DNA of 64,000 nucleotides from Escherichia phage GEP001: sequence record PV173775; one strand, given 5' to 3'. Below, in pieces: positions 1,659-63,504 of this stretch. Made by a program: the position numbers and the translations under genes. The notes beneath the pieces were generated by a model, which made no database searches, was not told the origin of the DNA, and saw only the letters and a list, made by a program, of their open reading frames with translations. How positions within the stretch are numbered: the first letter of the stretch is position 1; each line of letters starts with the position of its first letter.

Positions 1659-1993
1659 TGAATTTAACTGATATAATTGATAATTGTCTTGAAAATGATA
1701 CTGGTGATCATAGAGCGCTTGATTCTGAAACAGCACAGTTCATTAGAATAACTTTAATGAATGATACTCTAGTGAATAGTATTCATCCTTCTGTGTATGA
1801 TGCTATTATTGTGACGAAGTATCCAGTTGAGCTTCGCAAAAAGATGGCTGGTGCAATTTTTATTGATAAGAAAAACCGCTTTAAAGATGGGCAGAATATA
1901 ATTAGTTCTGTTATTAAAAGTATAACTAAACTTCGTCACGAAATTTATCGTGTTGAAACTGCTAAATCTGCTTATCTGGTGATTATGAAATGA
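1655..1993 (+). CDS. hypothetical protein, 112 aa
   Basis: ATGA start/stop overlaps on both sides (with upstream ORF and with cd). Confidence 0.55.
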   Translation: MMNLTDIIDNCLENDTGDHRALDSETAQFIRITLMNDTLVNSIHPSVYDAIIVTKYPVELRKKMAGAIFIDKKNRFKDGQNIISSVIKSITKLRHEIYRVETAKSAYLVIMK

Positions 1994-2571
1994 AAGCGAG
2001 TACAGTACTTCAAATTGCATATTTAGTATCACAAGAATCAAAATGTTGCTCCTGGAAGGTAGGAGCAGTAATTGAAAAGAATGGACGTATTATTTCTACC
2101 GGATATAATGGTTCACCTGCCGGGGGTGTGAACTGTTGTGATTATGCTGCTGAGCAAGGTTGGTTGCTGAATAAGCCTAAACATACTATCATTCAAGGTC
2201 ATAAGCCCGAATGTGTATCGTTTGGTTCAACTGATCGTTTTGTTTTGGCGAAAGAACACCGTAGCGCGCACTCTGAATGGTCGTCTAAAAATGAAATTCA
2301 CGCTGAACTAAATGCGATTTTGTTTGCTGCGCGAAATGGTTCTTCAATTGAAGGTGCTACTATGTATGTAACACTTTCTCCTTGCCCAGATTGCGCAAAA
2401 GCAATAGCTCAATCTGGAATTAAAAAGCTGGTTTATTGCGAAACATACGATAAAAATAAACCTGGCTGGGATGATATTCTGCGAAATGCGGGTATTGAAG
2501 TGTTTAATGTTCCTAAGAAAAACTTAAATAAGTTAAACTGGGAAAATATCAACGAATTCTGTGGTGAATAA
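1990..2571 (+). CDS. cd: dCMP deaminase
   Basis: 193 aa; zinc-deaminase motifs HAELNAI and SPCPDCAKAI in translation; N-terminus MKASTVLQIAYLVSQESKCCSWKVGAV recognised from memory of T4 Cd. Confidence 0.93.
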   Translation: MKASTVLQIAYLVSQESKCCSWKVGAVIEKNGRIISTGYNGSPAGGVNCCDYAAEQGWLLNKPKHTIIQGHKPECVSFGSTDRFVLAKEHRSAHSEWSSKNEIHAELNAILFAARNGSSIEGATMYVTLSPCPDCAKAIAQSGIKKLVYCETYDKNKPGWDDILRNAGIEVFNVPKKNLNKLNWENINEFCGE

Positions 2572-2807
2572 TGAAATTTCGTTTGGTACAGCTCACAGCA
2601 ATTAGTTCTTATTCTAATGAGAACATTTCATTTGCTGTAGAGTATAAGAAGTATTTTTTCTCTAAATGGAAACAGTATTATAAAACTGATTGGACTAGTA
2701 TTGATAGGCCGTATAGTTGGAAATCTGATTTAGAAAAATGCCAAAAATTGCTTTCCACTCTTAAAGAACGTGGAACAACCCATATTAAAACTGTAATAGG
2801 TAAATAA
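2571..2807 (+). CDS. hypothetical protein, 78 aa (T4 31.2 position)
   Basis: ATG immediately after cd stop; position between cd and gene 31. Confidence 0.55.
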   Translation: MKFRLVQLTAISSYSNENISFAVEYKKYFFSKWKQYYKTDWTSIDRPYSWKSDLEKCQKLLSTLKERGTTHIKTVIGK

Positions 2808-3116
2808 ATGAAACTGACAACTGAACAAAAAGTAGCAATTCGTGAAATTTTGAAAACTAAATTGTCCATGGGGGTTTCAAACATAGTTTTTGAAAAGTCT
2901 GATGGTACTATTCGTACTATGAAAGGTACTCGTGATGCTGATTTTATGCCAACCATGCAAACCGGTAAATTGACTGAATCTACTCGGAAAGAATCTACTG
3001 ATATGATTCCAGTATTTGATGTTGAGCTTGGTGCATGGCGAGGTTTTTCTATTGACAAATTGATTTCCGTTAATGGTATGAAAGTTGAGCATTTGCTTCA
3101 ATTTATTGGTAAATAA
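2808..3116 (+). CDS. hypothetical protein, 102 aa (T4 31.1 position)
   Basis: ATG 2808 directly follows upstream stop. Confidence 0.55.
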   Translation: MKLTTEQKVAIREILKTKLSMGVSNIVFEKSDGTIRTMKGTRDADFMPTMQTGKLTESTRKESTDMIPVFDVELGAWRGFSIDKLISVNGMKVEHLLQFIGK

Positions 3117-3142
3117 ATGCTTTAAGAATTATTTGTTATTAT
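3116..3142 (+). promoter_or_regulatory. middle promoter (MotA box AATGCTTTA + -10 TATTAT, 12-nt spacer) for gene 31
   Basis: MotA box 3116-3124, -10 3137-3142; 28 nt identical to the copy at 62582-62609. Confidence 0.65.
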
Positions 3143-3172
3143 TAATTCATCTGTTAACAAAAAGGAAAAACG

Positions 3173-3508
3173 ATGTCTGAAGTACAACAGCTACCAATTC
3201 GTGCTGTCGGTGAATTTGTTATTTTAGTTTCTGAACCTGCGCAAGCCGGTGATGAAGAAGTTACAGAATCAGGACTTATTATCGGTAAACGTGTTCAAGG
3301 TGAAGTTCCTGAACTGTGTGTAGTTCACTCCGTTGGTCCTGATGTTCCTGAAGGTTTCTGCGAAGTTGGTGATTTGACTTCTCTTCCAGTTGGTCAAATT
3401 CGAAACGTTCCGCATCCTTTTGTAGCTCTGGGACTTAAGCAGCCAAAAGAAATTAAACAAAAATTCGTTACCTGTCACTATAAAGCTATTCCGTGTCTTT
3501 ATAAGTGA
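3173..3508 (+). CDS. 31: head-assembly co-chaperonin (GroES analogue)
   Basis: 111 aa; [14 protein letters not shown]...KAIPCLYK recognised from memory of T4 gp31; middle promoter 3116-3142 upstream. Confidence 0.9.
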
Positions 3509-3516
3509 TATAAATA
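3509..3516 (+). promoter_or_regulatory. late promoter TATAAATA upstream of rIII
   Basis: exact TATAAATA immediately after gene 31 stop. Confidence 0.55.
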
Positions 3517-3655
3517 ATAATATGAATTGGGTGTCGGAATAATAAGTTAACCGAACAATTCTACGTGGTAGTCTACAACTGAGAGATCTGTCGAAAGAAG
3601 ATGAAATTCAGAAGAACGTGACTACCGAGTTTTAATCTCTAATGAGAATTTTTAA

Positions 3656-3904
3656 ATGATTAAACAATTACAACACGCTCTTGAACTGCAACGAAACGCA
3701 TGGAATAATGGTCACGAAAACTATGGCGCATCTATTGATGTTGAAGCCGAAGCTCTTGAAATCCTGCGTTATTTCAAACATCTGAATCCTGCTCAAACTG
3801 CATTAGCTGCTGAGCTTCAGGAAAAAGATGAACTTAAATATGCTAAGCCTTTGGCTTCTGCCGCACGAAAAGCAGTTCGTCACTTTGTGGTAACACTGAA
3901 GTAA
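3656..3904 (+). CDS. rIII: lysis-inhibition accessory protein rIII
   Basis: 82 aa; MIKQLQHALELQRNAWNNGHENYG... recognised from memory; late promoter TATAAATA at 3509-3516. Confidence 0.85.
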   Translation: MIKQLQHALELQRNAWNNGHENYGASIDVEAEALEILRYFKHLNPAQTALAAELQEKDELKYAKPLASAARKAVRHFVVTLK

Positions 3905-7094: not shown

Positions 7095-7363
7095 TGTTTG
7101 TTGTTCACACTATTTATGAAAATGAAGGTAATACTACACGTGATTATGGTCACGTAAATCAATTTTTTAGATGCAATCCAGAATTCCGAGCTCAAAAAGA
7201 CGAACGAATTTTTAAAAAATGTGTAGAGCAAGGTTTCATTTACGTCAAGCACTGGATGCAAGGAAATAAAGTTAGAACTACATATCATAAGTCTTTGCCT
7301 GAGCTTAATGATGAATTGATTTATAATAGAGCTGTAAATCAAACTCTGAAGGATGAACAATGA
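7094..7363 (+). CDS. hypothetical protein, 89 aa (T4 30.1 position)
   Basis: ATG overlaps upstream stop; ends in ATGA overlap with ligase start. Confidence 0.55.
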   Translation: MFVVHTIYENEGNTTRDYGHVNQFFRCNPEFRAQKDERIFKKCVEQGFIYVKHWMQGNKVRTTYHKSLPELNDELIYNRAVNQTLKDEQ

Positions 7364-8820
7364 TTCTTAAAATTCTGAATGAAATAGCATCTATTGGATC
7401 AACTAAGCAGAAGCAAGCAATTCTTGAAAAGAATAAAGATAATGAATTGCTTAAACGAGTATATCGTCTGACTTATTCTCGTGGGTTACAGTATTATATC
7501 AAGAAATGGCCTAAACCTGGTATTGCTACCCAGAGTTTTGGAATGCTGACTATTACCGATATGCTTGACTTCATTGAATTCACGTTAGCTACTCGGAAAT
7601 TGACTGGAAATGCAGCAATTGAGGAATTAACTGGATATATCACTGACGGTAAAAAGGATGATGTTGAAGTTTTACGTCGAGTTATGATGCGAGACCTTGA
7701 ATGCGGTGCTTCAGTATCTATTGCAAACAAAGTTTGGCCAGGTTTAATTCCTGAACAACCTCAAATGCTGGCAAGTTCTTATGATGAAAAAGGCATTAGT
7801 AAGAATATCAAGTTTCCAGCTTTTGCGCAGTTAAAAGCAGATGGAGCTCGGTGTTTTGCTGAAGTTAGAGGTGATGAATTAGATGATGTTCGTCTTTTAT
7901 CACGAGCTGGCAATGAATATCTAGGATTAGATCTTCTTAAGGAAGAGTTAATCAAAATGACTGCTGAAGCCCGCCAGATTCATCCAGAAGGTGTGTTAAT
8001 TGATGGCGAATTGGTATACCATGAGCAAGTTGAAAAGGAACCAGAAGGCCTAGATTTTCTTTTTGATGCTCCTGAAATCAGTAAAGCTAAAGAGTTTGCC
8101 GAAGTAGCTGAATCTCGTACTGCTTCTAATGGAATCGCCAATAAATCTTTAAAGGGAACTATTTCAGAAAAAGAAGCCAAATGCATGAAGTTTCAGGTCT
8201 GGGATTATGTTCCGTTGGTAGAAATATACGGTCTTCCGGCGTTTCGTTTAAAATATGATGTACGTTTTTCTAAACTAGAACAAATGACATCAGGATATGA
8301 TAAAGTAATTTTAATTGAAAACCAGCTAGTAAATAACCTAGATGAAGCTAAGGTAATTTATAAAAAGTATATTGACCAAGGTCTTGAAGGTATTATTCTC
8401 AAAAATACCGATGGATTGTGGGAAAATGCTCGTTCAAAAAATCTCTATAAATTTAAAGAAGTAATTGATGTTGATTTAAAAATTGTAGGAATTTATCCTC
8501 ACCGTAAAGACCCTACTAAAGCAGGTGGATTTATTCTTGAATCAGAGTGTGGAAAAATTAAAGTAAATGCAGGTTCAGGCTTAAAAGATAAAGCTGGTGT
8601 AAAATCACATGAACTTGACCGTACTCGCATTATGGAAAACCAAAATTATTATATTGGAAAAATTCTAGAGTGCGAATGCAACGGTTGGTTAAAATCTGAT
8701 GGCCGCACTGATTACGTTAAATTATTTCTTCCGATTGCGATTCGTTTACGTGAAGATAAAACTAAAGCTAATACATTCGAGGATGTATTTGGTGATTTTC
8801 ATGAGGTAACTGGTCTATGA
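7360..8820 (+). CDS. 30: ATP-dependent DNA ligase
   Basis: 486 aa; adenylation-site lysine in FAQLKADGARCF; MILKILNEIASIGSTKQKQAILEK... recognised from memory of T4 ligase. Confidence 0.95.
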   Translation: MILKILNEIASIGSTKQKQAILEKNKDNELLKRVYRLTYSRGLQYYIKKWPKPGIATQSFGMLTITDMLDFIEFTLATRKLTGNAAIEELTGYITDGKKDDVEVLRRVMMRDLECGASVSIANKVWPGLIPEQPQMLASSYDEKGISKNIKFPAFAQLKADGARCFAEVRGDELDDVRLLSRAGNEYLGLDLLKEELIKMTAEARQIHPEGVLIDGELVYHEQVEKEPEGLDFLFDAPEISKAKEFAEVAESRTASNGIANKSLKGTISEKEAKCMKFQVWDYVPLVEIYGLPAFRLKYDVRFSKLEQMTSGYDKVILIENQLVNNLDEAKVIYKKYIDQGLEGIILKNTDGLWENARSKNLYKFKEVIDVDLKIVGIYPHRKDPTKAGGFILESECGKIKVNAGSGLKDKAGVKSHELDRTRIMENQNYYIGKILECECNGWLKSDGRTDYVKLFLPIAIRLREDKTKANTFEDVFGDFHEVTGL

Positions 8821-9005
8821 AAGCTTACTTAGAAACAATTGTTATAGCTCAAAAAGAAGGTGGAGATGTTTCTACTTCTGTATCACAAGTCATTCTCGAA
8901 TTTGTAGATGCATATGCTTATAATAAATTTACAGAAACATTTGATGCCTATGAAAAAGGGCCAAAGTTTGAAATATATCGTACTCTCTTACCATTAGATT
9001 ATTAA
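8817..9005 (+). CDS. hypothetical protein, 62 aa
   Basis: ATGA overlap with ligase stop; hairpin 9004-9027 after stop. Confidence 0.5.
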   Translation: MKAYLETIVIAQKEGGDVSTSVSQVILEFVDAYAYNKFTETFDAYEKGPKFEIYRTLLPLDY

Positions 9006-9027
9006 AGGCCTTCGGGCCTTTAATTTT
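9004..9027 (+). terminator. hairpin terminator between ligase-distal ORF and alt
   Basis: AAAGGCC-TTCG-GGCCTTT followed by AATTTTA. Confidence 0.55.
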
Positions 9028-9034
9028 ATAAATA
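9027..9034 (+). promoter_or_regulatory. late promoter TATAAATA upstream of alt
   Basis: exact TATAAATA about 24 nt before the alt ATG. Confidence 0.65.
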
Positions 9035-9057
9035 GAATAAACACTAGAGAGGATATG

Positions 9058-11151
9058 ATGGAACTCATTACAGAATTATTTGACGAAGATACTACTCTTC
9101 CGATTACAAACTTAAATCCAAAGAAGAAAATACCGCAAATTTTTTCAGTTCATGTTGATGACGCAATTGAACAACCAGGCTTTCGTTTATGTACCTATAC
9201 ATCTGGAGGTGATACTAACCGTGATTTAAAGATGGGCGATAAAATGATGCATATTGTTCCTTTTACATTAACTGCTAAAGGTTCAATTGCTAAATTAAAA
9301 GGTCTCGGTCCAAGCCCAATTAATTACATCAATTCAGTTTTTACTGTTGCAATGCAGACGATGCGCCAGTATAAAATTGATGCCTGTATGCTTCGTATTC
9401 TTAAGTCTAAAACTGCTGGTCAAGCTCGACAAATTCAAGTTATTGCTGATAGACTTATCCGTAGTCGTTCAGGCGGCAGATACGTCCTTCTTAAGGAACT
9501 CTGGGATTACGATAAAAAGTATGCATATATTCTTATACATCGCAAAAATGTATCACTAGAAGACATTCCAGGAGTTCCAGAAATTAGTACCGAGCTCTTT
9601 ACTAAAGTTGAATCGAAGGTCGGCGATGTTTATATCAATAAAGATACTGGAGCTCAAGTAACTAAAAATGAGGCAATTGCAGCATCTATTGCGCAAGAAA
9701 ATGATAAACGTTCTGACCAAGCTGTAATCGTTAAAGTTAAAATTTCCCGTAGAGCAATTGCACAAAGTCAGTCATTGGAATCTTCTAGATTTGAAAGTGA
9801 ATTATTCCAGAAATATGAATCTACCGCAGCTAATTTCAATAAACCTGCTACAGCTCCTTTAATTCCCGAAGCAGAAGAAATGAAGCTTGGAATTAATTCA
9901 TTAGCTTCTAAAACTAAGGCAGCAAAAATTATTGCCGAAGGAACCGCAGATGAACTTCACTATGACTATAAATTCTTTTCAAAAAGTGATGTTAATGAAG
10001 TTTCTGAAAAAATTAAAGATGTAATTCTTAATGCGATTAAAAATGAACCAACTACTTCAATAAAATGTTTAGAGAAGTATGCAGCAGCTATTAATAAATT
10101 CTTTGAAGAATATAAAGATACTTGGCTTGATAAACATAATAAAACTCGTAAAGGGCAGCCAGATGAAGTCTGGGAAGAAATAACTAAAAATTCCTGGAAC
10201 GCAGCAAAAACTAAATTCCTCAAACGAATGATTTATAGCTTTTCTGGAATTGGTGCAGGTCCAATGATTGATATTACTATTGCCCGTGATGGTTCTAAAT
10301 ATACTCCATCACAAAAGCGCGGCATTAGAGAGTATTGTGGTTCAGGATATACTGACATCAATAATCTTCTTTTGGGTCGTTACAATCCAGAACGATATGA
10401 TGTAATGAGTGAAAAAGAAATTGAATCTGCGATAAATAATTTAGATTCAGCTTTTGAAAATGGTGACCGTATACCAGAAGGCATTACAGTTTATCGTGCT
10501 CAAAGTATGACTGCTCCTATATACGAAGCGCTAGTTAAAAATAAAGTGTTCTATTTCAGAAATTTTGTATCTACTTCTTTAACTCCTATCATTTTTGGAC
10601 GTTTTGGAATTACACATGCTGGTATCGGTCTTTTAGAACCAGAAGCTCGTAATGAATTAACAGTTGATAAAAATGAAGAAGGAATAACTATTAATCCAAA
10701 CGAAATAAGAGCGTATAAAGAAAATCCTGAATACGTTAAAGTTCAAATAGGATGGGCAATTGATGGAGCTCATAAAGTTAATGTTGTATATCCAGGAAGT
10801 CTCGGAATAGCAACAGAAGCTGAAGTAATTCTACCACGCGGATTGATGGTCAAAGTTAATAAAATAACTGATGCTTCTAATAATGACGGAACAACATCTA
10901 ATAATACAAAACTCATTCAAGCTGAAGTTATGACTACGGAAGAACTCACCGAATCAGTCATTTATGACGGTGACCGTCTAATGGAAACCGGCGAAGTAGT
11001 TGCAATGACAGGTGATATTGAAATAGAAGACAGAGTTGACTTTGCATCATTTGTTTCATCAAATGTTAAACAGAAAGCAGAATCATCTCTCGGAATTATT
11101 GCGTCTTGCATAGATATTACAAACATGCCTTACAAGTTCGTTCAAGGATAA
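9058..11151 (+). CDS. alt: ADP-ribosyltransferase Alt (capsid-packaged, modifies host RNA polymerase)
   Basis: 697 aa from second ATG (MELITELFDEDTTLPITNL... recalled T4 Alt N-terminus); STS motif (FYFRNFVSTSL) and E-x-E (EAEVILPRG); late promoter TATAAATA 9027-9034. Confidence 0.85.
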   Translation: MELITELFDEDTTLPITNLNPKKKIPQIFSVHVDDAIEQPGFRLCTYTSGGDTNRDLKMGDKMMHIVPFTLTAKGSIAKLKGLGPSPINYINSVFTVAMQTMRQYKIDACMLRILKSKTAGQARQIQVIADRLIRSRSGGRYVLLKELWDYDKKYAYILIHRKNVSLEDIPGVPEISTELFTKVESKVGDVYINKDTGAQVTKNEAIAASIAQENDKRSDQAVIVKVKISRRAIAQSQSLESSRFESELFQKYESTAANFNKPATAPLIPEAEEMKLGINSLASKTKAAKIIAEGTADELHYDYKFFSKSDVNEVSEKIKDVILNAIKNEPTTSIKCLEKYAAAINKFFEEYKDTWLDKHNKTRKGQPDEVWEEITKNSWNAAKTKFLKRMIYSFSGIGAGPMIDITIARDGSKYTPSQKRGIREYCGSGYTDINNLLLGRYNPERYDVMSEKEIESAINNLDSAFENGDRIPEGITVYRAQSMTAPIYEALVKNKVFYFRNFVSTSLTPIIFGRFGITHAGIGLLEPEARNELTVDKNEEGITINPNEIRAYKENPEYVKVQIGWAIDGAHKVNVVYPGSLGIATEAEVILPRGLMVKVNKITDASNNDGTTSNNTKLIQAEVMTTEELTESVIYDGDRLMETGEVVAMTGDIEIEDRVDFASFVSSNVKQKAESSLGIIASCIDITNMPYKFVQG

Positions 11152-11154
11152 ATC

Positions 11155-13212
11155 ATGGAACTTATTACAGAATTATTTGACGGCGCTTCGGCGCCGGTTG
11201 TTAACTTAAATCCTAAGCATAAAATACCTCAAATTTTTGCTATTCAAGCCGGTGAAGAAAGCGTGCTTCCTGGATTTAGATTTTGTACATACACCTCTGG
11301 CGGTGATACAAATAAAAACGTTAAGCCAGGCGATAAAATGATGCATATCGTAATGATAGGTGTTAATGAGAAACTATCATTAGTTAAACTTAAAAACTTA
11401 GGTGGAAATCCAATTGGTGTCATTAATGCGGTTTTTGATACTGCTCTTCAGACAATGAAACAGTACAAAATTGACGCATGCTTATTCCGCGTACTAAAGA
11501 GTAAAACAAATGGCGCAGCTCGACAAATTCAAGTTATTGCTGACCGTTTAGTACGTACTAAAGGAGCAGGTCGATATGTTCTTTTAAAAGAAATCTGGGA
11601 TTACGATAAAAAGTACGCATATATTATGGTTTACCGTAAAAATGCTAATTTAGAAGACATTCCAGGTGTACCTCCTATTTCAACTGAGTTATTCACAAAA
11701 GTTGAATCAAAGGTTGGTGATGTTTATGTAGATGTTAAAACAGGTAATGCTGTTCCTAAAGCTGTTGCTGTTGCTGCTTCTATTGCTTTAGAAAATGATA
11801 AGCGCACGGATCAAGCTGTTATTCAGAAAACTAAAATTAGTCGTCGATTAGCAGCACAAGCTCAATACTCTACTGTCGATGCTTCACTTCAGGGTGATAG
11901 CTTCGCTGCTAAGAAATATCAAGAGTTTGAATCTAAAGTTCCGGTATATAAAGCAGAAGGACCAATGAACTCCGGCGTTATTCAGGTTGGTTCAAACTTC
12001 AGCAAAGGAGCTATCGGTGGTATGAGAAGTGCTTCTCGTTTTAAATCTAATGATTATGAACTAGAAAGCTTCCGAAATCATATTGCATTGGCTCATGCAC
12101 GTTTACGTGATCCATCTATCAAGTTACAGAGCGATATAACATATCAAGGTTCTCAAGAATATTTAAAGAATAAAGAATTTTTTGATTATAAAACTGATAA
12201 AATTTTAAGCGATCTTGCTGACATTAATATTTCTAATAGCTTTGATGTTATTAAGAAAATTGTCAATGATTTAGTTAAAGGTTCTAAAGCCACACCAGAT
12301 GAAAAGGTAGCTATTGTTCAATTTGTCATGAATGGCATTTATAAATTGATTAATGAGTCTGCTTCTCAAGCGTATGAATATGCAAGTACTGAAGTACCCC
12401 CAAAAGGATTAACTCAAGCTGAGTCTGATGTAATTGAAGATTATTGCGCAGATTCATATGTTGAAATGAACTCGTTCCTTTTAGGTAAACCAGATTCTAC
12501 TCGTGAAGAATATATGGAACGAGCTATTAAACACATCGAGACAATGGATTCTGCTTTTGCCAAAGGATCAGTTCTTCCTCCAGGAACTACGCTTTACCGT
12601 GGCCAAGAAGTTACCTTTAAAACTTTACGTCATAATATTGAAAATAAAATGTTCTATTTTAAGAACTTCGTATCCACATCGCTTAAACCAAATATCTTCG
12701 GTGAGTATGGTAAAAACTATATGGCCCTAGATGATTCCGGCACAGTATTTTCTGGTGAAGGAGAAGGTTCAGTTGATGCTGAAGATTTGATGCATATGGG
12801 CAGTCATTCTGCGTATGCCAATGAAGATGCTGAAACTAGCGTTGGTATGGTAATTAAAGGAGCTGAGCGAATCAAAGTTATCGTTCCAGGTCATTTATCA
12901 GGATTTCCATCAGAAGCTGAAGTTATTTTACCGCGTGGAATTTTGCTGAAGATTAATAAAGTGAGTACGTACATGATGAAAGAAACTGCTTATAACAAGT
13001 ATCTAATCGAAGGCACAATCGTTCCTCCTTCTGAACAATTAGAAGAATCGGTATATGATGGTGACCATCTGATGGAAACTGGTGAAGTTCGTCCAATGAC
13101 TGGATTTAACCAATTCCTTGTAGAAGAATCAAAAGAAGAGGAAAACGAAGTTTCTCAAATCTTGGCTTCTTTGGTTAACATCAACGGAATGTCTAAAAAG
13201 TTCAAGATGTAG
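11155..13212 (+). CDS. Alt-paralogous ADP-ribosyltransferase, 685 aa
   Basis: N-terminal ~230 aa closely parallel to Alt (MELITELFDGASAPVVNLNPKHKIPQIF...); STS (FYFKNFVSTSL) and E-x-E (EAEVILPRG) retained; central region unrelated. Confidence 0.8.
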   Translation: MELITELFDGASAPVVNLNPKHKIPQIFAIQAGEESVLPGFRFCTYTSGGDTNKNVKPGDKMMHIVMIGVNEKLSLVKLKNLGGNPIGVINAVFDTALQTMKQYKIDACLFRVLKSKTNGAARQIQVIADRLVRTKGAGRYVLLKEIWDYDKKYAYIMVYRKNANLEDIPGVPPISTELFTKVESKVGDVYVDVKTGNAVPKAVAVAASIALENDKRTDQAVIQKTKISRRLAAQAQYSTVDASLQGDSFAAKKYQEFESKVPVYKAEGPMNSGVIQVGSNFSKGAIGGMRSASRFKSNDYELESFRNHIALAHARLRDPSIKLQSDITYQGSQEYLKNKEFFDYKTDKILSDLADINISNSFDVIKKIVNDLVKGSKATPDEKVAIVQFVMNGIYKLINESASQAYEYASTEVPPKGLTQAESDVIEDYCADSYVEMNSFLLGKPDSTREEYMERAIKHIETMDSAFAKGSVLPPGTTLYRGQEVTFKTLRHNIENKMFYFKNFVSTSLKPNIFGEYGKNYMALDDSGTVFSGEGEGSVDAEDLMHMGSHSAYANEDAETSVGMVIKGAERIKVIVPGHLSGFPSEAEVILPRGILLKINKVSTYMMKETAYNKYLIEGTIVPPSEQLEESVYDGDHLMETGEVRPMTGFNQFLVEESKEEENEVSQILASLVNINGMSKKFKM

Positions 13213-13241
13213 TTTACAAGTCCCTCGTGTTGTGTTATAGT
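13212..13241 (+). promoter_or_regulatory. early-type promoter
   Basis: GTTTAC 13212-13217, TATAGT 13236-13241; upstream of ORF 13273. Confidence 0.55.
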
Positions 13242-13272
13242 AATTTTACTTACATAACATGAGGAACACAAA

Positions 13273-13563
13273 ATGAAATCTTCTTTGCGCTTTTTAGGTC
13301 AAGAACTTGTAGTTGAAGGCGTTATTCCTGCTGATAATGCTTTTAATGAAGCAGTTTATGATGAATTTATCAAAATTTTTGGAACAGATAAAAAGTTTGG
13401 AATTTTTCCTTCTGAAAATTTTTCAAAGCCACAGCAGACTGAAAGCATTTTCCAAGGTGTAGTAACAGGTAAATTTGAGTCAGAAGCTCCGGTAAAAATT
13501 GAAGTTTATATTGAAGACAGTTTAGTTGCTTCAGTTGCTGCTTTTATTTCATTCCGTAAATAA
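13273..13563 (+). CDS. hypothetical protein, 96 aa
   Basis: GAGGA ribosome-binding site 13261-13265; own early-type promoter 13212-13241; bidirectional terminator 13566-13596. Confidence 0.55.
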   Translation: MKSSLRFLGQELVVEGVIPADNAFNEAVYDEFIKIFGTDKKFGIFPSENFSKPQQTESIFQGVVTGKFESEAPVKIEVYIEDSLVASVAAFISFRK

Positions 13564-13565
13564 AA

Positions 13566-13596
13566 ATATGGGGACCGAAAGGTCCCCATTGTTTTA
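13566..13596. terminator. bidirectional terminator between 96-aa ORF (+) and gene 54 (-)
   Basis: 9-bp stem ATGGGGACC-GAAA-GGTCCCCAT with T-runs on both strands. Confidence 0.75.
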
Positions 13597-14559
13597 TATT
13601 GCTCCTAATATTTTACTTTGCGAGTTGACAATTCCCGTCATAGTATTAATGTTTGAAATGCTTCCAGCAGTTCCTCCTAATCTACTAAGTCGTGAAAGCG
13701 AATTAGATAGTCCAGTAACGCCTCCGCTATTTCCGAGAACGCTTTGAATGCCATTTATAGCAGCAGATTCAAGCCACTCAAGCGCAGCTTGTCTATCAAC
13801 TGCTCCAGCCTGCATAACTCTATACGCAAAAGTAACATCAAATGTAGTTATTTGGTTATCTCCATCATATGATAACTCAGGAGCGCTCACTGACACTGGA
13901 ATGCATCCGGTGAACATCACTGCAGTATGAGGTAATCCATTACGAGCATGAAGATTAACTTGAATATCTGCCTCGACATCTTGTGGTAAAGCACGCAGTC
14001 CAGTTACTGGGTCTTGAACAGAGTTAACCCAGTCTTGCATTGCACGATAGTTACATGCTTCTGAATCCATTCTAAATGAAATAACCAAAGGGTCTAATTC
14101 TCTCCCAGTTATACGAATATTAGGAGAATTATAGTTCCAGTCAGTTTCATAGGATAATCTATTCTCTGGCATTTTTACAGAATATATCATCAATCCAGAT
14201 GAGTTATATGCCATGTTAAAGAAGTCAATTAAATATGTACCAACTGTAAATGAGCCCAATAAACTTTGAACTGTACGTTGACTCATGGCACCAATAAGAT
14301 ATTTACTAACCCCTGATTTTCTTATCAGTTTTTGTGTGCCAGCTGTAATTAGCGTGGTAATTCCCTGATTAATATCGCCTTGAGTCAATCCTAACCAATC
14401 TGAATTTAGACCCAAGTTATTATAAGAAAAGTTGCTAATTGAACTTATCAACGAAGAGCTTTTAGTTGATGGAGTTGTCGCAAAAACGCAGCTAAACATA
14501 TTATTACGTTGGAAATCTGCGTTTATTGCTTGATTATTAAATTCCTCTAAAGAATACAT
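13594..14559 (-). CDS. 54: baseplate tail-tube initiator
   Basis: 321 aa; length, position and sequence match recalled T4 gp54. Confidence 0.9.
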   Translation of the reverse strand: MYSLEEFNNQAINADFQRNNMFSCVFATTPSTKSSSLISSISNFSYNNLGLNSDWLGLTQGDINQGITTLITAGTQKLIRKSGVSKYLIGAMSQRTVQSLLGSFTVGTYLIDFFNMAYNSSGLMIYSVKMPENRLSYETDWNYNSPNIRITGRELDPLVISFRMDSEACNYRAMQDWVNSVQDPVTGLRALPQDVEADIQVNLHARNGLPHTAVMFTGCIPVSVSAPELSYDGDNQITTFDVTFAYRVMQAGAVDRQAALEWLESAAINGIQSVLGNSGGVTGLSNSLSRLSRLGGTAGSISNINTMTGIVNSQSKILGAI

Positions 14560-62675: not shown

Positions 62676-62748
62676 TGGGAATTAGCCAAGTTGGTAAGGC
62701 ACTGGATTTTGATTCCAGGATGCAAAGGTTCGAGTCCTTTATTCCCAG
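62676..62748 (+). tRNA. tRNA-Gln (anticodon UUG)
   Basis: Hand-folded: acceptor TGGGAAT/ATTCCCA, anticodon stem CTGGA/TCCAG, loop TTTTGAT; CCA not encoded. Confidence 0.85.
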
Positions 62749-62749
62749 C

Positions 62750-62836
62750 GCGAGAATGGTCAAATTGGTAAAGGCACAGCACTTAAAATGCTGCGGAATG
62801 ATTTCCTTGTGGGTTCGAGTCCCACTTCTCGCACCA
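62750..62836 (+). tRNA. tRNA-Leu (anticodon UAA), long variable arm
   Basis: acceptor GCGAGAA/TTCTCGC, anticodon stem CAGCA/TGCTG, loop CTTAAAA; encoded CCA. Confidence 0.85.
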
Positions 62837-62841
62837 AATTT

Positions 62842-62915
<74 letters not shown>

Positions 62916-62925
62916 ATTTAATTTA

Positions 62926-62999
62926 CTCCGTGTAGCTCAGTTTGGTAGAGCGTCTGCTTTGGGAGCAGAATGTCGTAGGTTCAAATCCTGCTACGGAGA
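62926..62999 (+). tRNA. tRNA-Pro (anticodon UGG)
   Basis: acceptor CTCCGTG/TACGGAG (one G-U), anticodon stem TCTGC/GCAGA, loop TTTGGGA; CCA not encoded. Confidence 0.8.
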
Positions 63000-63001
63000 C
63001 T

Positions 63002-63091
63002 GGAGGCGTGGCAGAGTGGTTTAATGCACCGGTCTTGAAAACCGGCAGTCGCTCCGGCGACTCATAGGTTCAAATCCTATCGCCTCCGCCA
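63002..63091 (+). tRNA. tRNA-Ser (anticodon UGA), long variable arm
   Basis: acceptor GGAGGCG/CGCCTCC, anticodon stem CCGGT/ACCGG, loop CTTGAAA; encoded CCA. Confidence 0.85.
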
Positions 63092-63097
63092 GTTTTT

Positions 63098-63173
63098 GCT
63101 GATTTAGCTCAGTAGGTAGAGCACCTCACTTGTAATGAGGACGTCGGCGGTTCGATTCCGTCAATCAGCACCA
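63098..63173 (+). tRNA. tRNA-Thr (anticodon UGU)
   Basis: acceptor GCTGATT/AATCAGC, anticodon stem CCTCA/TGAGG, loop CTTGTAA; encoded CCA. Confidence 0.85.
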
Positions 63174-63174
63174 A

Positions 63175-63249
63175 GGCCCTGTAGCTGGAAGGTTCAAGCA
63201 AGCGACTCATAATCGCCAGATGGTGGTTCAATTCCACCCAGGGCCACCA
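63175..63249 (+). tRNA. tRNA with CAU anticodon (Met by anticodon; may be lysidine-type Ile reading AUA)
   Basis: acceptor GGCCCTG/CAGGGCC, T-arm GGTGG-TTCAATT-CCACC, anticodon loop CTCATAA; top anticodon-stem pair is A/C. Confidence 0.75.
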
Positions 63250-63258
63250 AATTAATTT

Positions 63259-63345
63259 GGGGAGTTATCCCGTAGAGGTAGCGGTGTGGACTGTAAATTC
63301 ATTGTCATTGCGACTCGGGTGGTTCGACTCCATCACTCCCCACCA
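63259..63345 (+). tRNA. tRNA-like gene, probably tRNA-Tyr (anticodon GUA), long variable arm, non-canonical D-arm
   Basis: 7-bp acceptor GGGGAGT/ACTCCCC + A + CCA, T-arm GGTGG-TTCGACT-CCATC, loop CTGTAAA flanked by GTGGA/TTCAT (two G-U pairs); D-arm does not fold canonically by hand. Confidence 0.55.
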
Positions 63346-63349
63346 ATTT

Positions 63350-63424
63350 GGATGTGTAGCTCAATGGCAGAGCGATCGCCTGTTAAGCGATTGGTTATAG
63401 GTTCGAATCCTATCACGTCCGCCA
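63350..63424 (+). tRNA. tRNA-Asn (anticodon GUU)
   Basis: clean cloverleaf: acceptor GGATGTG/CACGTCC, D-stem GCTC/GAGC, anticodon stem ATCGC/GCGAT, loop CTGTTAA, T-arm ATAGG-TTCGAAT-CCTAT; encoded CCA. Confidence 0.85.
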
Positions 63425-63428
63425 AATC

Positions 63429-63504
63429 CGAGGCATAGCTCAGAAGGAAGAGCAAGGACCTTCTAAGTCCTAGGTCGTAGGTTCGATCCCTACTGCCTCG
63501 ACCA
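63429..63504 (+). tRNA. tRNA-Arg (anticodon UCU)
   Basis: acceptor CGAGGCA/TGCCTCG, D-stem GCTC/GAGC, anticodon stem AGGAC/GTCCT, loop CTTCTAA; encoded CCA. Confidence 0.85.

Follow-up and report, generated by a model that had tools for sequence, protein, structure and literature searches.

We found that two adjacent genes in a 64,000-nucleotide window of Escherichia phage GEP001 (sequence record PV173775; the window is this whole stretch) encode, by sequence, full-length Alt-type ADP-ribosyltransferases (ARTs). The upstream gene, alt (copy 1), is read as the ortholog of T4 alt, and the downstream gene, alt2 (copy 2), is almost certainly a genuine, selected Alt paralog. The window is DNA of a T4-like phage of the genus Tequatrovirus, and 542 phage records match its region 8800-13600, with a top identity of 97.9%. 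We consider it probable that Alt2 is a second capsid-delivered arginine-specific ART with a substrate range different from that of Alt, the two genes forming a late-transcribed bicistronic unit for two mono-ADP-ribosyltransferases. Both proteins would have a common build: a 6-residue N-terminal propeptide is followed by a conserved basic alpha/beta N domain of ~230 aa, a middle domain of ~175 aa that varies, the ART domain with its R-S-ExE residues and, at the C terminus, an acidic propeptide of 54-65 aa.

Both genes are located on the plus strand. Copy 1 spans 9058-11151 (697 aa) and copy 2 spans 11155-13212 (685 aa), leaving a gap of 3 nt as given in the initial annotation of this DNA. The open reading frame of copy 1 can be read as 9055-11151 (698 aa) or 9058-11151, and the ATG at 9058 was preferred because GAGG (9049-9052) is found 5 nt upstream of it and because it gives the T4-like start MELITE. 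In copy 1 the N domain covers 9058-9771, the middle domain 9772-10287, the ART domain 10288-10953 and the C-terminal propeptide 10954-11148. The corresponding segments of copy 2 are 11155-11865, 11866-12390 (a helical middle domain), 12391-13047 and 13048-13209.

Over the whole length the two proteins are 41% identical (BLASTP, E 3e-160), which is far beyond chance and marks them as true paralogs, although similarity is distributed very unevenly. The N-terminal part, described at the outset as running in parallel for ~230 residues, is 68% identical over 238 aa (residues 1-238), the ART domain (residues ~413-630) is 35% identical and the rest, the C-terminal tail, ~40%. For the middle domain (residues ~239-412) no BLASTP match between the copies was obtained even at E<=10. 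Nor was any relationship found by hhalign between middle-domain profiles (probability 0.24%, E 0.25), the families having been built from 4 and 7 diverse sequences. The first ~25 residues past KISRR can still be aligned between the copies, with E259 and P263 nearly invariant. The central residues thus appear unrelated at the level of sequence and profile, as had been claimed, over ~175 residues rather than the ~200 originally given. The difference may be a replacement or a divergence beyond recognition, and the two middle domains may have a fold in common.

Both copies matched the Pfam family PF03496 (ADPrib_exo_Tox) above its gathering cut-off of 23.4 bits, copy 1 with 129.5 bits (E 1.3e-37) and copy 2 with 72.8 bits (E 3.1e-20). 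The Alt family phrog_802 was matched over the full length by both (E 1.8e-272 for copy 1 and 4.5e-255 for copy 2), and PF26846 (Tevenvirinae_ADPRT) is recorded in close homologs. The catalytic residues are YR480, STS505-507 (nucleotides 10570-10578) and EAE587-589 (10816-10824) in copy 1, and YR482, STS507-509 (12673-12681) and EAE587-589 (12913-12921) in copy 2. Three of these motif positions had been assigned correctly in the initial annotation, both E-x-E motifs and the first STS motif, while the second STS motif had been placed at 12674-12682, one base off. In an alignment of 19 diverse homologs spanning the family R482, S507, S509, E587 and E589 (copy 2 numbering) were all invariant. Family matches and catalytic residues agree with the original assignment of both proteins as full-length Alt-type R-S-E ARTs, and we infer that copy 2 is catalytically active.

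The AlphaFold2 model of copy 2 has a mean predicted local distance difference test score (pLDDT) of 73 and contains an alpha/beta N domain (residues 15-215), a helical middle domain (250-415) and an ART domain (420-625), followed by a C-terminal tail of low confidence. When this model was searched with Foldseek, the toxins Vis, C3, CDTa, VIP2 and iota toxin were retrieved with E-values of 4e-7 to 1e-5 and target TM-scores of 0.58-0.70, the probability being 1.00 for Vis, C3 and VIP2. Copy 2 models as a C3/VIP2/Vis-type ART fold; a failure to do so had been named in advance as the outcome that would speak against the assignment. By sequence search, copy 1 matches CDTa and iota toxin, and no PDB chain matched copy 2 at E<=0.01, for which reason the fold of copy 2 is argued from Pfam and from AlphaFold2/Foldseek.

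Signals for capsid processing were found at both ends of both proteins. T4 Alt is trimmed by the prohead protease gp21 at ITE-6 and LTE-619, losing 6 N-terminal and 63 C-terminal residues to give a mature protein of 68.2 kDa, as determined by mass spectrometry (Ali et al. 2017, PMC5694885; see also PMC9026906), and ~40 copies per capsid are injected with the DNA (PMC9026906). At the aligned positions gp21 motifs are present as ITE-6 and LTE-632 in copy 1 and as ITE-6 and LEE-631 in copy 2, with predicted mature masses of 70.1 and 69.1 kDa, respectively. E6, E631, YDGD634-637 and E641/G643/E644 (copy 2 numbering) are invariant or nearly so, and the propeptide carries the motif YDGD..(L/M)E(T/S)GE. 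In the literature searched for it, no virion proteomics on Alt2 turned up.

The T4 late-promoter consensus TATAAATA is located at 9027-9034 on the plus strand, 24 nt upstream of copy 1, and occurs only once within 8000-14000 when both strands are searched. It is part of a region (9004-9034, plus strand) in which a strong, GC-rich terminator-like hairpin, AAAGGCC-TTCG-GGCCTTT, follows alt.1 and directly precedes the promoter. Between copy 1 and copy 2 neither a promoter nor a terminator was detected. A Shine-Dalgarno sequence for copy 2, AAGGA, is found at 11144-11148 on the plus strand, within the 3' end of copy 1 and 6 nt before the ATG. Directly after the copy 2 stop codon a strong early-type sigma-70 promoter begins (13213-13241, plus strand; TTTACA-17-TATAGT, with TG), belonging to the alt.-3 homolog. 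This promoter is the best match within 8700-13700 (10 of 12 positions) and ends the alt-alt2 unit.

Comparison with T4 places copy 1 as the ortholog of T4 Alt (NP_049811) by sequence, with 72% identity overall. Identity is 100% in the N domain, 32% in the middle domain, 61% in the ART domain and 90% in the C-terminal tail. Likewise, the synonymous divergence (dS) between the alt gene of the window and that of T4 is 0.11 in the N domain and exceeds 1 in the middle and ART domains, which means that Alt comes in two or more alleles of long standing, set between flanks that are conserved. Among close relatives Alt is dimorphic, with one allele in the window, T2 and Bas37 and another in T4 and AR1. 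The pattern indicates that an old effector cassette, comprising the middle and ART domains (9772-10953 in copy 1), was swapped between conserved flanks. The Alt allele of the window is present at >=90% identity in 316 records, T2 included.

Whether T4 carries an intact second copy was left open in the initial annotation; T4 has only a deleted stub. The T4 proteins alt.-1 and alt.-2 (NP_049810 and NP_049809) match residues 1-117 of copy 2 with near identity, and the PHROG families built on them give better scores with copy 2 than with copy 1. By blastn, T4 matches the window to ~11502 and resumes at 13193, so that a copy 2 segment of ~1.69 kb (11503-13192, plus strand) is deleted. The second gene of T4 is also broken by an internal stop codon and has no ART domain left. 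On sequence grounds, the gene that survives in T4 as the alt.-1/alt.-2 stub is present intact as copy 2. The T4 GenBank record describes alt.-1/alt.-2 as 'an old duplication of the first part of gene alt'.

The middle domain of copy 2 is present in 445 phage records, in 401 of them at >=90% identity (including T6, RB18, RB27, AR1, wV7 and ime09) and in 44 at <60%. Most Tequatrovirus phages carry the tandem pair, T4 being the exception. The pair is neither unusual nor new: copy 2 is annotated as 'Alt2' in Bas37, the AR1 record has two genes labelled 'alt', and RefSeq uses the label 'Alt-like RNA polymerase ADP-ribosyltransferase (x2)'. A remark on the duplication is given in the T4 record, and alt paralogs, the T4 stubs included, were listed by Nolan et al. 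2006 (PMC1524935). The pair is therefore already known as annotation and ordinary as a sequence feature. In the literature searched, no study on the function of Alt2 turned up.

Copy 2 is maintained by purifying selection, with dN/dS (non-synonymous to synonymous substitution) of ~0.05 among orthologs at dS 0.09-0.26 and below 0.13 in each segment. The reading frame has its full 685 codons in all copy-2 or hybrid genes that were translated (the window, NBG2, AR1, ECML-134, P0003 and P0006).

The copies do recombine, as is shown by six natural Alt-N/Alt2 hybrids, which are new in this analysis and bear out the earlier suggestion of recombination between them. The exact DNA runs common to the copies are 27, 22, 20, 19 and 16 nt long; these had been given as 20-26 nt, where the quoted 26-mer is indeed found at 9424 and 11518 and the range is in fact 16-27 nt. 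In ECML-134, PST, P0003, P0004, P0006 and P0007 the 5' part of the gene is of the copy-1 type and the remainder of the copy-2 type (loci L005, ECML-134, 1742-3802, and L014, Yersinia phage PST, 542-2602; further L003, L004, L007 and L008). For each hybrid, one clean switch from copy 1 to copy 2 fits 97-99% of ~255 informative sites. The six switch points are all distinct (codons ~51, 100, 108, 156, 183 and 221) and all fall within the N domain, mapping the natural crossovers to 9207-9717 in copy 1 and to the partner zone 11310-11820 in copy 2 (plus strand).

The hybrids are single genes between alt.1 and alt.-3, and this single-gene hybrid state is seen in the complete genomes of ECML-134, SCS4 and Yersinia phage PST. 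By sequence they are the products expected of an unequal crossover deleting the effector part of Alt. P0003, P0004, P0006 and P0007 come from Sequence Read Archive (SRA) or metagenome contigs, and these four could be due to assembly collapse. As an overall explanation collapse is unlikely, given the three independently deposited complete genomes and the differing crossover points. At least three states of the locus exist: most phages have both effectors, T4 has Alt only, and others have only an Alt-N/Alt2 hybrid.

Experimental data are available for Bas37 (Escherichia phage KarlGJung, MZ501089), which carries essentially the same pair with no real difference. Its proteins bas37_0033 ('Alt') and bas37_0032 ('Alt2') are 99.0% and 98.4% identical to those of the window, and the gene order (ligase, alt.1, Alt, Alt2, alt.-3, gp54) is identical. 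When Bas37 was screened by transposon insertion on E. coli K-12, 116 of the 164 TA sites in Alt2 were hit, with a mean count of 44.5 and a classification as 'Intermediate' (HIDEN-SEQ preprint 10.1101/2025.11.20.689424, Extended Data Table 7). For Alt, insertions were found at 164 of 179 TA sites (mean count 203.6, 'Non-essential'), and the small genes flanking Alt and Alt2 were non-essential as well (preprint 10.1101/2025.11.20.689424). The main text of the preprint is silent on Alt2, which is found only in its extended-data tables. The screen suggests that Alt2 is more important than Alt for Bas37 on K-12; toxic truncations are another way to account for the depletion of insertions in Alt2. 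The same preprint reports that T4 Alt aids evasion of Mokosh type I and that Alt(Bas37_0033) cannot replace Alt(T4), growth being restored by the T4 form only. Differences between Alt proteins in their middle and ART domains thus matter for function.

In the mechanism that we favour, Alt and Alt2 would both be built into the prohead core and cut by gp21 at ITE-6 and at an L-x-E site at ~631/632, giving enzymes of ~69-70 kDa. The trimmed enzymes would be injected with the DNA and would use host NAD+ to modify arginines of host proteins. Alt would act on RNA polymerase alpha and its other known targets, and Alt2 most likely on a different set of host proteins, because its middle domain is non-homologous and its ART domain only 35% identical. 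The conservation of both gp21 sites and of the late-promoter context makes a second injected ART, directed at another target, the most parsimonious interpretation. The locus as a whole behaves like a common delivery unit whose effector modules can be exchanged.

One target of T4 Alt is Arg265 of RNA polymerase alpha, and Alt2 could be a redundant duplicate acting on this and the other targets of Alt, adding only dose or robustness. The two copies are indeed alike in architecture, in the arginine-type E-x-E motif, in operon and in processing motifs, and T4 without Alt2 and the hybrid phages without the Alt effector show no obvious harm, as expected of interchangeable functions. We nevertheless regard redundancy as unlikely. 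No similarity can be detected between the middle domains, and identity in the ART domains is only 35%, yet each type is under strong purifying selection (dN/dS ~0.05-0.09), and both are kept together in ~400 genomes; this speaks for separate functions, each under selection. Against Mokosh, one Alt variant cannot stand in for another even though these variants resemble each other more closely than Alt resembles Alt2, and in Bas37 the two genes differ in their tolerance of insertions.

Still less probable is an active Alt2 that is not packaged and acts late in the producing cell. T4 offers a precedent in ModA and ModB, two non-packaged ARTs that act once they are expressed, and the missing virion proteomics noted above would be compatible with it. 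On the other hand, an enzyme of this kind would have no need of the Alt-specific N domain (68% identity), of both gp21 motifs or of YDGD..ETGE, all of which are kept, and alt2 is co-transcribed with alt from the late promoter. ModA and ModB act on the transcription and translation machinery, are ~200 aa single-domain proteins and are encoded elsewhere in the T4 genome. Neither gave a match with E below 0.1 to either copy (BLASTP and phmmer), and a kinship was rejected on this lack of significant similarity together with the multidomain structure of the window proteins (685-697 aa). That copy 2 is decaying, as a pseudoenzyme or nascent pseudogene, might be supposed from the degraded stub in T4, from its Pfam score, weaker than that of copy 1, and from the lack of a PDB sequence match. 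This is very hard to reconcile with a reading frame that is full-length in every translated gene, a middle domain at least 90% identical in 401 records, the invariant catalytic residues and the under-representation of insertions in Bas37 Alt2; the pseudogene reading was rejected on dN/dS and conservation.

Among known systems, T4 Alt resembles copy 2 in architecture, in the N domain (68% identity), in the R-S-ExE residues, in both gp21 sites and in genomic position. It differs from copy 2 in its non-homologous middle domain and in the ART domain (35-37% identity), and from copy 1 in that the window carries the other allele of the middle (32%) and ART (61%) domains; targets are established for T4 Alt alone. 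Alt-type genes characteristically follow gene 30/alt.1, precede alt.-3/gene 54 and are served by a late promoter, and the window shows this arrangement. The C3/VIP2/iota/CDTa/Vis toxins of the R-S-E type (PF03496) have the C-terminal fold and the catalytic motifs in common with the window proteins. They are however secreted or binary bacterial toxins that have neither the N and middle domains of the phage proteins nor gp21 propeptides, and identity is 14-21%.

The arrangement is also reminiscent of polymorphic toxins and polyvalent proteins, in which a conserved delivery module is combined with a swappable effector (Iyer et al. 2017, PMC5512222; Iyer et al. 2022, PMC9503650). At the alt locus an N module and propeptides surround a variable middle and ART part, and recombination in the conserved part reassorts the effectors. 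Unlike in polymorphic toxins, the effector is always an ART and the N domain is not MuF, and the likeness is one of analogy only, not of membership. We tentatively propose, as an idea somewhat less likely to be right than wrong, that the alt locus of T-even phages is a polymorphic injected-effector system. In such a system the N domain and two gp21-cleaved propeptides would carry interchangeable middle and ART cassettes, reassorted by N-domain crossover, and Alt2 would have a host target unlike that of Alt; instead of RNA polymerase, this could plausibly be a protein of host defence or of the stress response.

The N domain itself has no Pfam match. Nine distant N-domain representatives were checked for non-ART cargo; most carry PF03496, and three are without any Pfam match. 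A Foldseek search of the model of copy 2 residues 1-415 against BFVD gave Alt homologs and weak matches of N-domain size (170-230 columns, E 1e-5 to 1e-3). The latter are large uncharacterised proteins from phages of Erwinia, Vibrio, Dickeya, Shigella and Agrobacterium, one of them with a Zeta-toxin domain annotation. As a lead from these weak matches, for which the aligned regions were not seen, the Alt N domain may be a wider delivery module.

The neighbouring genes on the plus strand are, in order, DNA ligase gp30 (7360-8820), the alt.1 homolog (8817-9005), the two alt copies and the alt.-3 homolog (13273-13563), with the baseplate genes 54, 48 and 29 downstream of the latter on the minus strand. 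The alt.1 homolog is a protein of 62 aa that matches the Pfam family PF24647 ('Phage_blade', E 1.9e-29), and its reading frame has a 4-nt overlap with the ligase stop. The alt.-3 homolog, directly downstream of copy 2 and with its own early-type promoter, is a DUF5498 protein of 96 aa. T4 Alt.-3 with C-terminal extensions leads to phage escape from the CmdTAC defence system (PMC11618068), and the Bas37 homolog bas37_0031 is depleted on E. coli CFT073 (log2 fold change -2.70, q 0.02; HIDEN-SEQ preprint, Extended Data Table 7). Outside this region, a cluster of 10 tRNA genes is located at 62676-63504 on the plus strand (Gln, Leu, Gly, Pro, Ser, Thr, Met/Ile-CAT, Tyr, Asn and Arg). T4 has 8 tRNA genes and is not known to have any for Tyr and Asn, so that the set of the window phage is slightly larger.

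T4, the reference for phage host takeover, is atypical at the alt locus in having one full-length Alt-type ART. Most of its close relatives have two, among them T6, RB18, RB27, AR1 and the BASEL phages Bas37, AdolfPortmann and Paracelsus. Alt2 is an obvious and tractable candidate for a second injected enzyme that modifies the host or counters its defences, for which the natural hybrids and deletions provide ready-made genetic contrasts. If the interpretation of the locus as a polymorphic effector system is true, T4 has hidden half of the injected ART arsenal of the T-even phages.

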